A stretch of DNA of 31,201 bases, from positions 1 to 31,201 of the forward strand of contig NZ_JAHDSX010000028.1 of NCBI RefSeq assembly GCF_020969955.1, given 5' to 3'. Below, piece by piece: positions 10,132-13,100 of the stretch; position 1 is the stretch's first letter, and every line of letters starts with the position of its first letter. Source of the stretch: Allobaculum fili (lineage in GTDB: Bacteria > Bacillota_I > Bacilli_A > Erysipelotrichales > Erysipelotrichaceae). A program made the translations under genes and the position numbers. The notes under the pieces were generated by a model. The model saw only the letters and a list, made by a program, of their open reading frames with translations, made no database searches and was not told where the DNA came from.

Positions 10132-13100
10132 ATGAACAGAAAAACTGTATTCAAAAAGGTTTCTGTCCTGGCTCTTGCGCTGTCCATGACGATGACAACC
10201 CCTGCCTACACGCTTGTAATGCCGGTCCTTGCCAGTGAAGAAACCACCCTGAAAACAGAAGTACAGATTACCGATCTGACGGTGAAATCCGGTCTGAAAA
10301 AAACGGATCTGTCCTTTACGCTGCCCGAAAACGCCGACAGCGCACTGACGTACAAAGTGTATCGCGGAACCAAAGTCGATGAACTGAGCGAAATCGGAAC
10401 CGCCAGCGTATCGGAAGGAAAGGGCACCTTTACCGATACCGACAGCGTCACAGACAAACTGTATTTTTATCGGATTCAGGCGGGGGATGCCAGTCAGAGC
10501 GTTGCCTCCGAAGTGCAGTACAGCCAGACGGCTGCTGGCATGGATTCAATCGCCAACGCCCCGTTTTATAAAGATACGTCCAAAATCGAGTTCGATAACA
10601 GCACGTTGGTCGAGCTGACCCCCGAAGAAATCAGCACCTTCCGGGATATGGACAAACCGACGATTTTCGTAAAAGCTGCGCCTAAGGAAAACGTGACCCA
10701 TACCCAGATGTTTTTCATGGCCAAGGATACGGCGGGAGCAGGCGGCAATGCAAACCGGATTTACTTTCAGCTCAGTAAAATTGCTGACAATACGTATCAG
10801 CCGCAGTTTGCCTGGAACGGTGTCGCCTATGCGGGAGATGTCTCACGCTTCAAAGGCGGCGAAACGCATATCTGCGCTCTGGGCTATACGTCCGATAACA
10901 AGATTTCTCTAGTCAGTGACGATCCCGCACAGTCGCGGACCCAGTTTACACGCGAGGCGACCGGCTTTAAGGCAATTAACAATCTGGATGAAGCCACGCT
11001 CGGCGGCTGGAAAGTCAGCGGTACACCTGCGACAACAAATTATTTTGAAGGAACGATCGATTACGTAGCCATTACGGATGAGGCGATCAGCGAGCAGGAA
11101 CTGCGTTCTTTTGTAACCTACAAGCCTGAGACCAGAACTTTCTCCATCGCGCTGGATGCAGGAGAGGGAAGTCTTGAGGCCGAGATGCCGTCTGTAACCA
11201 AAGCGGCAAGTGCCGTCGTTCTGACCATTCCCGAAGCCGCGCCAACCAAAGCGGGCAGCACCTTTACCGGATGGACGGCCAACGGAAAATCGTATCAGCC
11301 TGGAGAGCCTGTTATCCTCGATGCCAATGCGCCTGTGCTGTCTTTACAGGCGGCGTATCAGGATGACGGCACGACCGATCCGGAAGAACCCGATCCCGTT
11401 ACGCTTCCAGTTCTTCAGGCTAAAGGCCGTTATCAGGAAACGGTTCTCTCGATCGAGCGTCCGCAAGACGATACGAAAATTTACAGTATTCTTCGTGCCG
11501 AAGAAGAAGGCGGAACGTATGCGCAGGTCGGAACGATCGATGGATCTTCCTATTCGTTTATTGATACCGGTCTGACCAACGAAAAAGCGTACTTTTATAA
11601 ACTCCAGAATGGAAATACGATCTCGAATGCAGCCGTAACGGCCACGCCGGGCAAAACCGCCTTTATCAAAAATGCGGAAGCGCATAAAACGCTGGCCGAA
11701 AACGAACAGAGCTTTGATGGATCCCGTACTGTTTCGATGAGCGATCAGCTCGATGCCGTTAAAGATCTCGAAGACGGATCGATCATTCTCCGCTTCAAAA
11801 TGGACGAAGCTGGAGCGGAACGCTATGCCTTTACCGCCTCCAGCAGCAGGAACCTCATTAACAGCGGTCTTCCCAACGCCAATAACCTGCTTTATATGGG
11901 GCACAACGACAAGGGACAGGCACGGGTGAACATCAATGCCCTGCGCGGAGCAGCCGGAAGCAATCTGAGTGATGGACAGTGGCATACCGCCGTTCTCGCT
12001 TCCGATACCGCAAGCGGATTTGATGCGTATCTGGCTGTCGATGGCAATGAGATCCTCTCTTTTGCGGATACGACCGGTACCAATGCGAAAGCCTTCCTGA
12101 AGGGAATTTCTGAACTCGATCGTCTGGAAATCGGCGGCTATACCGGCGCCAGCGGTGTGGAATCCGGCTTTAAGGGCGACATCGAGTACGTTTCAATTTC
12201 TTCCCAGAAACTGACGAAGGAACAGGCCAAGGCGCTTTCGATGGAATCTTCCGCCAATCTGCGCAGGGACATGTTCTCCAATTCCACCGAAAACACCTGG
12301 CTCTTTGTCGGCGGAGCGGATACGGAAGGCGACTTTGATCAGATCGGCGATATTCGTCCGTACTCCAATCAGTTTGAAGAATTCGTTCGCTGGGACAGAC
12401 GAAGCGATAACGGCTTTGCGACGATGCGTTACGTCACAAACGGTGCAGCCGCCGGAAATGATCTGAAAAAAACGATCGAAAAACTCGACCGACAGCTGCA
12501 GGTCGTTCATCCGCGCGCCGTTGTGTATCTCTCATCCAAAGAAGATCTGGATGCCTATGCGACCGCTTCGGACAAAGCCGCGTGGATTGCCGGCTATAAA
12601 GCCGACCTGAAGACGCTGCTGGACAAAGCGACCGCTTCGGACGGAGTGAATACGTATCTCGTTTTACAGACACCGTATGTTACCGAGGATGCATCCAATC
12701 CCGATGCACAGAAGGTACTTGCCGATGCGATGAAAGACTTCCGCAGTTCGCTTTCCAGCGAACTGGCCGGTCATGTTCTTATCGTCGATCATTCCAGTCA
12801 GCCGCTCGCCAATTCTGCCGATCAGCCGACCGTGAAAAACGGGCTTCTGACCGGACTTGGCCAGTACCGCCTCGCTAAACAGTTCGCACAGACCGTTTAT
12901 GGATCCAGCAATTTCGCCTGGGGCGAAGACTATATTGACTCGCATGTCCTTTCGGATATTCCTGTCTATAAAGCTCTTGCAACGGCTCCGTTTACAGCCG
13001 ATTTCACCGGGGCTGACGGACTGAACGTGACATTAGGTAGCGCTTCGGTATTTGAAGGCAGAAACTATGTTCTCGAAGCACAGGGCGAAGATCTGAAACT

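Follow-up and report, generated by a model that had tools for sequence, protein, structure and literature searches.

O-Acetylation of sialic acids shields colonic mucin from bacterial sialidases, and the esterases that remove these acetyl groups control access to this nutrient. The closest characterised system to the one described here is the SiaBb1-type sialidase/esterase fusion of Bifidobacterium bifidum, a degrader of mucin and human milk oligosaccharides. SiaBb1 (UniProt N0DNS0) is a large surface protein in which a GH33 sialidase is fused to an SGNH O-acetylesterase and a LamG-type domain, and its esterase removes 9-O-acetyl groups and aids the action of sialidases on mucin (PMC10298468, PMC7232152). 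We compared it by description, and the published descriptions mention one SGNH domain only (PMC10298468, PMC7232152). A mucin-degrading lifestyle has also been reported for Allobaculum (PMC8409761). Here, we analysed a 31,201-nucleotide (nt) stretch of Allobaculum fili (contig NZ_JAHDSX010000028.1, positions 1 to 31,201; hereafter, the window), which encodes two giant secreted proteins in tandem, A and B. Each carries a canonical SGNH esterase domain (the live domain) and, N-terminal to it, a second SGNH-like domain in which the catalytic Ser and His are replaced (the dead or pseudo-SGNH domain). Most relatives of this cassette share the sialidase-plus-esterase layout of SiaBb1, whereas A and B differ from it in lacking a sialidase domain.

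Three further systems offer partial parallels. The OSK domain of Drosophila Oskar likewise combines an SGNH-type fold with loss of the catalytic residues, and it has been kept because of a non-catalytic role; however, it is eukaryotic, is described as RNA-binding, has no live paralogous partner and bears no relation to glycans. In CE2 esterases (e.g. CtCel5C-CE2), an SGNH-type site is also a non-catalytic polysaccharide-binding site, according to the part of PMC9487903 that cites Montanier 2009, but these enzymes keep the catalytic Ser-His, belong to another SGNH family and have no tandem dead/live pair. Stand-alone SGNH esterases of ~215 amino acids (aa), annotated as 'lysophospholipase L1-like', share the fold and clade of the dead domain but possess the full GDS...GxND...DxxH chemistry, consist of a single domain and have 14-16% identity to the dead domain; the nearest solved structures are 3rjt, Axe2 (3w7v), EstL5 (8ik1) and LAE5 (5jd3). 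As an analogy only, the arrangement is reminiscent of the JH2-JH1 pseudokinase-kinase tandem of JAK, in which the live domain is directly preceded by a dead paralog that has been conserved along with it as a partner. The kinase pair has an unrelated fold and biology, and no regulatory role is implied for the dead SGNH domain.

An earlier note on this DNA, made from the sequence alone, proposed that both proteins hold a domain that has kept the SGNH fold and lost its chemistry, that is paired with a live copy and that is retained by selection. This core reading is supported by fold, homology and conservation, and it extends to at least 174 protein clusters. In our judgement, the dead domain is very probably a conserved non-catalytic partner of the esterase. 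All motif strings given in the note were found in their places in A and B, in the dead and live domains alike (Table 1), and the dead domain, which the note placed some 330 aa upstream of the live one, precedes it by 342 aa in A and 349 aa in B when measured between block I motifs, in agreement with that estimate.

Alignment of the dead-family and live-family profiles with hhalign places, in A numbering, G728 at the block I Asp, A729 at the Ser nucleophile, N770 and G775 at the block II Asn and Gly, E804 at the block III Asn, D805 at the Asp that follows and L905 at the His. The block I Ser of GDS is not conserved in dead domains, the equivalent residues being G-G-A in A and G-G-E in B, and the most frequent residue at this position reaches 21% across the family. 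At the block III oxyanion Asn, the dead family has a Glu that is 88% conserved (E804 in A, E448 in B), while the block V His is replaced by Leu905 in A and Gln548 in B, in the most variable column of the dead domain. The contention that every catalytic position had been replaced thus holds for the Ser, the adjacent Asp, the block III Asn and the His, but not for the block II oxyanion Gly, which is kept in A (G775), in B (G419) and in 104/115 family members. Loss of the catalytic His from B was likewise read correctly, the position being Gln548, although the His within the LNGYGH string of B matches a non-catalytic His in the ...PNGIGH of the live domain. From these replacements, we infer that the dead domain is without esterase chemistry.

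Ser and His are both kept in only 1/113 homologs, P0133 from Paenibacillus sp. LHD-38 (WP_308996327.1, aa 594-1068). Because its first domain carries GDS and DGIHPN, this homolog is in fact a tandem of two live SGNH domains; further parts of the protein are a CBM40, a GH33 sialidase, a dockerin and a cohesin. P0133 may represent an ancestral-like state or an independent duplication.

Structure prediction supported an SGNH fold for the dead region. Using a 48-sequence alignment, AlphaFold2 returned a confident model (predicted local distance difference test, pLDDT, 90.9; predicted template modelling score, pTM, 0.90) with the beta-alpha-beta order of SGNH proteins, and its five strands (model residues 19-23, 64-66, 92-96, 138-142 and 178-181) agree with the five-stranded parallel sheet of the three-layer alpha/beta/alpha architecture. 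A first run on a 2-sequence alignment (pLDDT 60.8), since superseded by the deep alignment, yet already matched SGNH folds. When the model was searched against the PDB with Foldseek, the top 50 hits were all SGNH/GDSL esterases (E values from 1e-6, template modelling scores 0.6-0.77, 14-16% identity), among them EstL5, LAE5, 3rjt, Axe2 and TesA, and no close relative was found among these solved structures. The concern that the region might not be an SGNH fold, for which the earlier note had suggested structure prediction as a check, is therefore answered.

Homology between the dead and live domains was only apparent at the level of families. BLAST similarity was marginal and a two-sequence hhalign comparison of dead and live domains was uninformative (E 0.011, probability 3.9%); therefore, larger family alignments were built. 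When a profile of 102 dead domains was set against one of the 102 live domains in those same proteins, the two proved collinear over 198 columns (hhalign: E 6.5e-27, probability 99.7%), which bears out the block-by-block correspondence described in the earlier note. The dead-family profile hit only SGNH proteins among PDB sequences (3rjt, 6e-8; Axe2, 3e-5), and live enzymes that stand alone (215 aa) are matched by the dead-family hidden Markov model (HMM) with E values of 1e-20 to 1e-30. Pfam Lipase_GDSL_2 (PF13472) is touched by 33/48 dead-family members at E<=1. The dead domains of A and B gave no match to PF13472 (gathering threshold 32.9 bits) even at E<=10, compared with 78-82 bits for their live domains, and no NCBIfam match. 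Between A and B, the dead domains share 30% identity (E 9e-32) and the live domains about 44-46%.

A full HMMER scan of 1.84 billion representative proteins with a profile of the A and B dead domains returned 174 proteins at E<=1e-3, corresponding to at least 174 clusters, and 125 at E<=1e-10. A word-indexed protein search with the dead domain, alone or as the 48-sequence profile, proved too insensitive a method and recovered only fragments of the window's own gene. The 115 aligned domain copies have a near-invariant signature of their own (DNTW-v-F-x-GG, RNY..FEEYIRW, RQRY.IN.GK.G, PKAV.Y..G.EDY, VIQ.P, VVDH and G.LNA.GH). In essentially every non-fragmentary match, a live SGNH domain of the same clade lies C-terminal to the dead domain. 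Among the 102 such modules, the gap between the two is ~98 aa in 83 and 4-33 aa in 19. The whole dead-plus-live module is duplicated within one chain in five proteins (P0006, P0007, P0008, P0015 and P0116), and minimal proteins of ~450 aa consist of the two domains alone, ~10 aa apart.

A LamG-type domain sits directly upstream of the dead domain in 59/72 members with sufficient upstream sequence, and a GH33 sialidase (BNR_2) and/or CBM40-type domain was present in 12/14 large members checked with Pfam, for instance in [Ruminococcus] torques ATCC 27756 (a protein of 1975 aa) and Streptococcus azizii (a YSIRK protein of 2174 aa). In the conserved unit, a LamG-type lectin domain is followed by the pseudo-SGNH domain, an optional spacer of ~100 aa and finally the live SGNH domain. 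The proteins that carry this unit are large, secreted or located at the surface, and come from Firmicutes and Actinobacteria of the gut and mouth. Genomes that encode the dead domain, as sampled with an 8-sequence alignment and a single peptide pattern, include those of Allobaculum mucilyticum, Lachnospiraceae, Robinsoniella, Roseburia, Oscillospiraceae, Streptococcus, Actinomyces and Bifidobacteriaceae.

Enzymes of the live clade also occur without the dead domain, either alone (215 aa) or as LamG+SGNH proteins; the dead partner is therefore an addition specific to host-associated giant proteins. In P0245, P0248, P0251, P0256, P0258 and P0263 (~430 aa, several annotated as Streptomyces), a LamG domain is fused straight to a live SGNH domain. 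This suggests that the LamG-SGNH layout came first, with the dead copy arising later between the two domains. The family clusters carry only the generic source annotation 'GDSL-type esterase/lipase family protein'. Searches of the literature on tandem, inactive or pseudo-SGNH domains in esterases and sialidases found no description of the dead domain or of a dead/live tandem, and the Allobaculum paper lists carbohydrate-active enzymes without discussing the genes for A and B. The dead domain is apparently an undescribed pseudoenzyme family within the SGNH superfamily, with no Pfam or NCBIfam model.

The proposal that the dead domain is maintained by selection agrees with its near-invariant family motifs and with its mean pairwise identity over module pairs (33.8%), which is close to that of the live domain (36.4%) and above that of the linker (25.9%). 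Of 29 columns that are at least 80% conserved in the dead family, A retains 24, B 22 and the median member 27. Between A and its A. mucilyticum ortholog, identity is 72-75% for the two N-terminal LamG domains, 51% for the dead domain, 39% for the spacer and 70% for the live domain. The dN/dS comparison suggested in the earlier note was informative in part: non-synonymous divergence (dN) from this ortholog is 0.41 in the dead domain, 0.245 in the live domain and 0.64 in the linker, well below synonymous divergence (dS) in the case of the dead domain, but dS is saturated at ~2 or undefined at this distance, making the resulting omega of ~0.2 indicative only. Inside 90% clusters, each domain had only 0-5 variable sites, too few for a comparison between domains. 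Judged from these alignments, the dead domain is clearly under constraint; in Allobaculum, this constraint is looser than that on the live domain. The conservation data contradict neutral decay.

Constraint is unevenly distributed within the domain. In the live family, the ten positions that line the catalytic centre have an entropy of 0.55 bits. The dead family reaches 2.68 bits at these positions, against a mean of 2.23 bits over its domain; in A numbering, the freed positions comprise 729-732 in the block I loop, 771-774 in block II, 803 and, at the His, 905. By this measure, constraint has been lifted from the centre of the old pocket but not from the scaffold. Most conserved residues of the dead family belong to the framework and are shared as conserved positions with the live family, and those specific to the dead family are N721, N743, R753, H887, N907 and H911. 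Several other positions are conserved in both families but hold different residues in each. At three of these, which are highly conserved, the charge is reversed between the dead and live domains of A (R742/D1083, E750/K1091 and R766/D1104; nt 12355-12429 in the dead domain). K795/D1135 forms a weaker fourth pair. The reversals may reflect salt bridges that were swapped within each domain or, in a dead/live pseudo-dimer, surfaces that complement each other.

The explanation that fits best, and to which we give slightly more credence than doubt, is that the dead domain is a duplicated, disabled and selected structural or positioning partner of the live esterase. It would have originated as an ancient tandem duplicate of the esterase domain now C-terminal to it, the duplicate having lost its His, its Ser nucleophile with the Asp beside it, and its oxyanion Asn, in place of which there is now a conserved Glu. 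Purifying selection would then have kept the disabled copy as a fixed partner of the live domain, putatively as an intramolecular pseudo-dimer or as a rigid platform between the lectin domain and the esterase, and such a platform would fix the geometry of both on the glycan. Assuming a non-catalytic partner, we rate a mainly structural or positioning role at about even, perhaps marginally better; it is favoured because conservation is found in the fold framework and in a few dead-specific residues, whereas the old active site varies freely at its centre.

Several observations weigh against this explanation. The Allobaculum dead domain evolves faster than its live neighbour when compared with A. 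mucilyticum, and A and B hold fewer consensus residues than the median member of the family. Since live-clade enzymes exist on their own or with a LamG domain only, the partner is not required for folding or catalysis as such. By Pfam, A and B have no GH33 sialidase domain of their own, only a CBM40-like LamG domain, and the substrate is thus read from their relatives. Lastly, conserved polar residues ring the old pocket (R742, 92%; N743; N770, 96%; E804, 88%; D805, 93%; Q846, 83%; H887, 81%; N907, 82%; H911, 90%), an arrangement that a ligand site would fit too.

This ring argues for the foremost alternative, namely that the dead domain acts as a carbohydrate-binding module whose remodelled former active-site face would bind a sialoglycan, possibly one with O-acetylated sialic acid, and would hold mucin chains beside the live esterase, raising its efficiency on polymeric substrate. 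In the model, the C-termini of strands beta1-beta5, which hold the substrate-binding site in SGNH enzymes, are where the rim residues are located. The cassette acts on glycans and has lectin-type domains around it, and the passage on CE2 in PMC9487903 (citing Montanier 2009) provides a precedent for an esterase site doubling as a binding site. Conversely, the centre of the live pocket is unconstrained in the dead family, the majority of conserved dead-domain residues belong to the framework shared with the live domain, one of the two rim histidines is lost in A and one in B, and a dedicated LamG/CBM40-like lectin-type domain is already present directly upstream in most members. Because the ancestral pocket is unconstrained, any glycan binding by the dead domain would not be through that pocket, and the idea of O-acetyl-glycan binding raised in the earlier note appears weakened. 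Overall, we regard the carbohydrate-binding module as a rather doubtful alternative to the structural partner; granted a non-catalytic partner, direct glycan binding on the remodelled surface is possible though clearly less probable than a structural function.

It is far less probable that the dead domain is a cryptic enzyme in which a remodelled site, made up of Glu804/Asp805 together with either His887/His911 or the conserved arginines, would act on acetylated sialic acids, for example by non-canonical ester hydrolysis or acetyl migration. The near-invariant Glu-Asp at the former oxyanion position, with conserved His and Arg nearby, is what such a site might look like; however, neither the Ser position nor its surroundings hold a conserved nucleophile, and no column varies more than the equivalent of the His. 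His887 and His911 are each lost in one paralog, with mostly Gln at the matching live-domain positions, D805 is a framework Asp in both families, and E804 replaces the conserved Asn of the live family, where a carboxylate would disfavour ester hydrolysis by the established SGNH mechanism. In a broader form, which is similarly improbable in our estimation, the pseudo-SGNH domain would not be inert but would serve either as a sialoglycan-recognising module or as a remodelled catalyst on sialic acid acetyl groups. It might, for instance, promote 7/8-to-9 O-acetyl migration for the neighbouring 9-O-acetylesterase, and the new site would consist of the conserved Glu804-Asp805 and the ring of conserved Arg, His, Gln and Asn. 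We know of no protein catalyst identified for O-acetyl migration, although one has long been discussed. Least credible of all is a decaying remnant, that is, a duplicated esterase domain drifting neutrally and serving at most as an inert spacer: A and B do lack Pfam matches in this domain, share only 30% identity there and fall below the median member in consensus residues, but the family spans Firmicutes and Actinobacteria with near-invariant motifs, its pairwise identity is near that of the catalytic domain and above that of the true spacer, its AlphaFold2 model is confident and its dN lies well below the saturated dS.

The live partner carries the SGNH esterase motifs, with FIGDSITHG at aa 1067-1075 of A, FYGDSITHG at aa 711-719 of B, and NTAVSGA, LGMND and LHPNG in both. 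Across 102 live domains, Ser is retained in 98, Asn in 97 and His in 97, but the triad Asp in only 43; the residue three positions before the His is otherwise Asn in 24 and Gly in 12. In A, this residue is Asn (NNNL at aa 1236-1239, nt 13837-13848, before His1240), and the live clade therefore seems often to run on a Ser-His dyad. By analogy with SiaBb1, and because of the GH33/CBM40 association in relatives and the degradation of mucin by Allobaculum, the live domain most probably acts as a sialate O-acetylesterase, unmasking the sialic acids of mucin.

If the esterase unit is truly a two-lobed dead/live pair that follows a lectin domain, constructs, annotations and CAZy-style classes that use the SGNH domain alone may miss half of it, and this would concern many mucosal Firmicutes and Actinobacteria. 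A model dedicated to the dead domain would improve the annotation of hundreds of giant 'GDSL-type esterase/lipase family proteins'. The pair also offers a natural case in which to study what a pseudoenzyme partner contributes to a glycan-processing enzyme, be it stability, geometry or substrate capture. As a pseudoenzyme case, it is a solid one that is testable and useful for annotation and construct design, though not surprising in kind.

Table 1. Coordinates of proteins A and B and of their domains in the window
Feature	Residues (aa)	Window position (nt)	Strand	Description or evidence
Protein A	1741 in total	10132..15357	+	Secreted multidomain protein; N-terminal signal-like sequence (open reading frame list, translation)
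A, LamG/CBM40-like lectin-type domain	532-701	11725..12234	+	Pfam PF02973 1.1e-9, PF13385 2.6e-16; adjoins dead domain on upstream side
A, pseudo-SGNH domain	712-925	12265..12906	+	AlphaFold2, Foldseek, hhalign to live family
A, dead block I motif	725-733	12304-12330	+	FVGGADTEG
A, dead block II motif	770-776		+	NGAAAGN
A, dead block III motif	800-805		+	LSSKED
A, dead block V motif	905-911		+	LLTGLGQ
A, dead-to-live spacer (~100 aa)	945-1050	12964..13281	+	Fastest-evolving part of the cassette
A, live SGNH esterase domain	1060-1260	13309..13911	+	Lipase_GDSL_2 1.2e-21; Ser1071, Gly1113, Asn1144, His1240
Protein B	1394 in total	15662..19846	+	Secreted; tandem paralog of A (open reading frame list, translation)
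B, LamG/CBM40-like domain	150-334	16109..16663	+	Pfam Laminin_G_2 7.6e-16, Sialidase N-terminal domain 8.6e-5; adjoins dead domain upstream
B, pseudo-SGNH domain	350-570	16709..17371	+	30% identity to A dead domain (E 9e-32); same family alignment
B, dead block I motif	362-370	16745-16771	+	FVGGEEVAA
B, dead block II motif	414-420		+	NAGKTGN
B, dead block III motif	444-449		+	TAGIED
B, dead block V motif	548-554		+	QLNGYGH
B, dead-to-live spacer (~100 aa)	590-690	17429..17731	+	A/B alignment, module spacing
B, live SGNH esterase domain	705-900	17774..18361	+	Lipase_GDSL_2 2.8e-22; Ser715, Asn788, Asp881, His885

Protein A comprises three LamG-type domains, the dead SGNH domain, a linker and the live SGNH domain, as judged from Pfam and the translated open reading frame (ORF). 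Pfam recognised Lipase_GDSL_2 at aa 1067-1247, Laminin_G_3 at aa 546-698, a Sialidase N-terminal domain at aa 532-701 and Laminin_G_2 at aa 1525-1639, with a weak FIVAR hit near the C-terminus (aa 1670-1725, E 0.14, under the curated cut-off). In B, Lipase_GDSL_2 was placed at aa 711-893, giving a single recognised canonical SGNH domain per protein. The two proteins share 39% identity over a 1366-column alignment that covers nearly all of B. The first ~420 aa of A, which hold an extra LamG domain and a Listeria-Bacteroides repeat, are absent from B (10132-11400 in A; B begins at 15662). The genes lie 304 nt apart and encode nearly identical signal peptides (MNRKT...SVLALALSM).

Neither gene appears to be a pseudogene. 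In the GenBank record CP078088.1 (Allobaculum sp. Allo2), A and B are each broken into several ORFs, and we considered and rejected the possibility that they are decayed, because this record is rich in indels relative to the window (37 gap positions in 35 indels, with one mismatch, over the 20.5 kb of window 2136-22623) and because nusA is broken there too (400 + 280 aa). In the window, nusA is intact as a 612-aa ORF at 3692-5530. In our judgement, the ORF splits in CP078088.1 have the look of indel errors left uncorrected in long-read data.

A short fibronectin-like repeat ending in YFY[KR][IL] occurs three times in A (10348-10476, 11479-11604 and 14332-14454; aa 73-115, 450-491 and 1401-1441) and twice in B, each copy preceding a LamG-type domain. 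The gene directly upstream of A (window 8899-9849) encodes a 316-aa membrane protein with an HELVH motif, and its counterpart in the GenBank record (315 aa, L001 6749-7696) gave only weak matches to Peptidase_M90 and ATLF.

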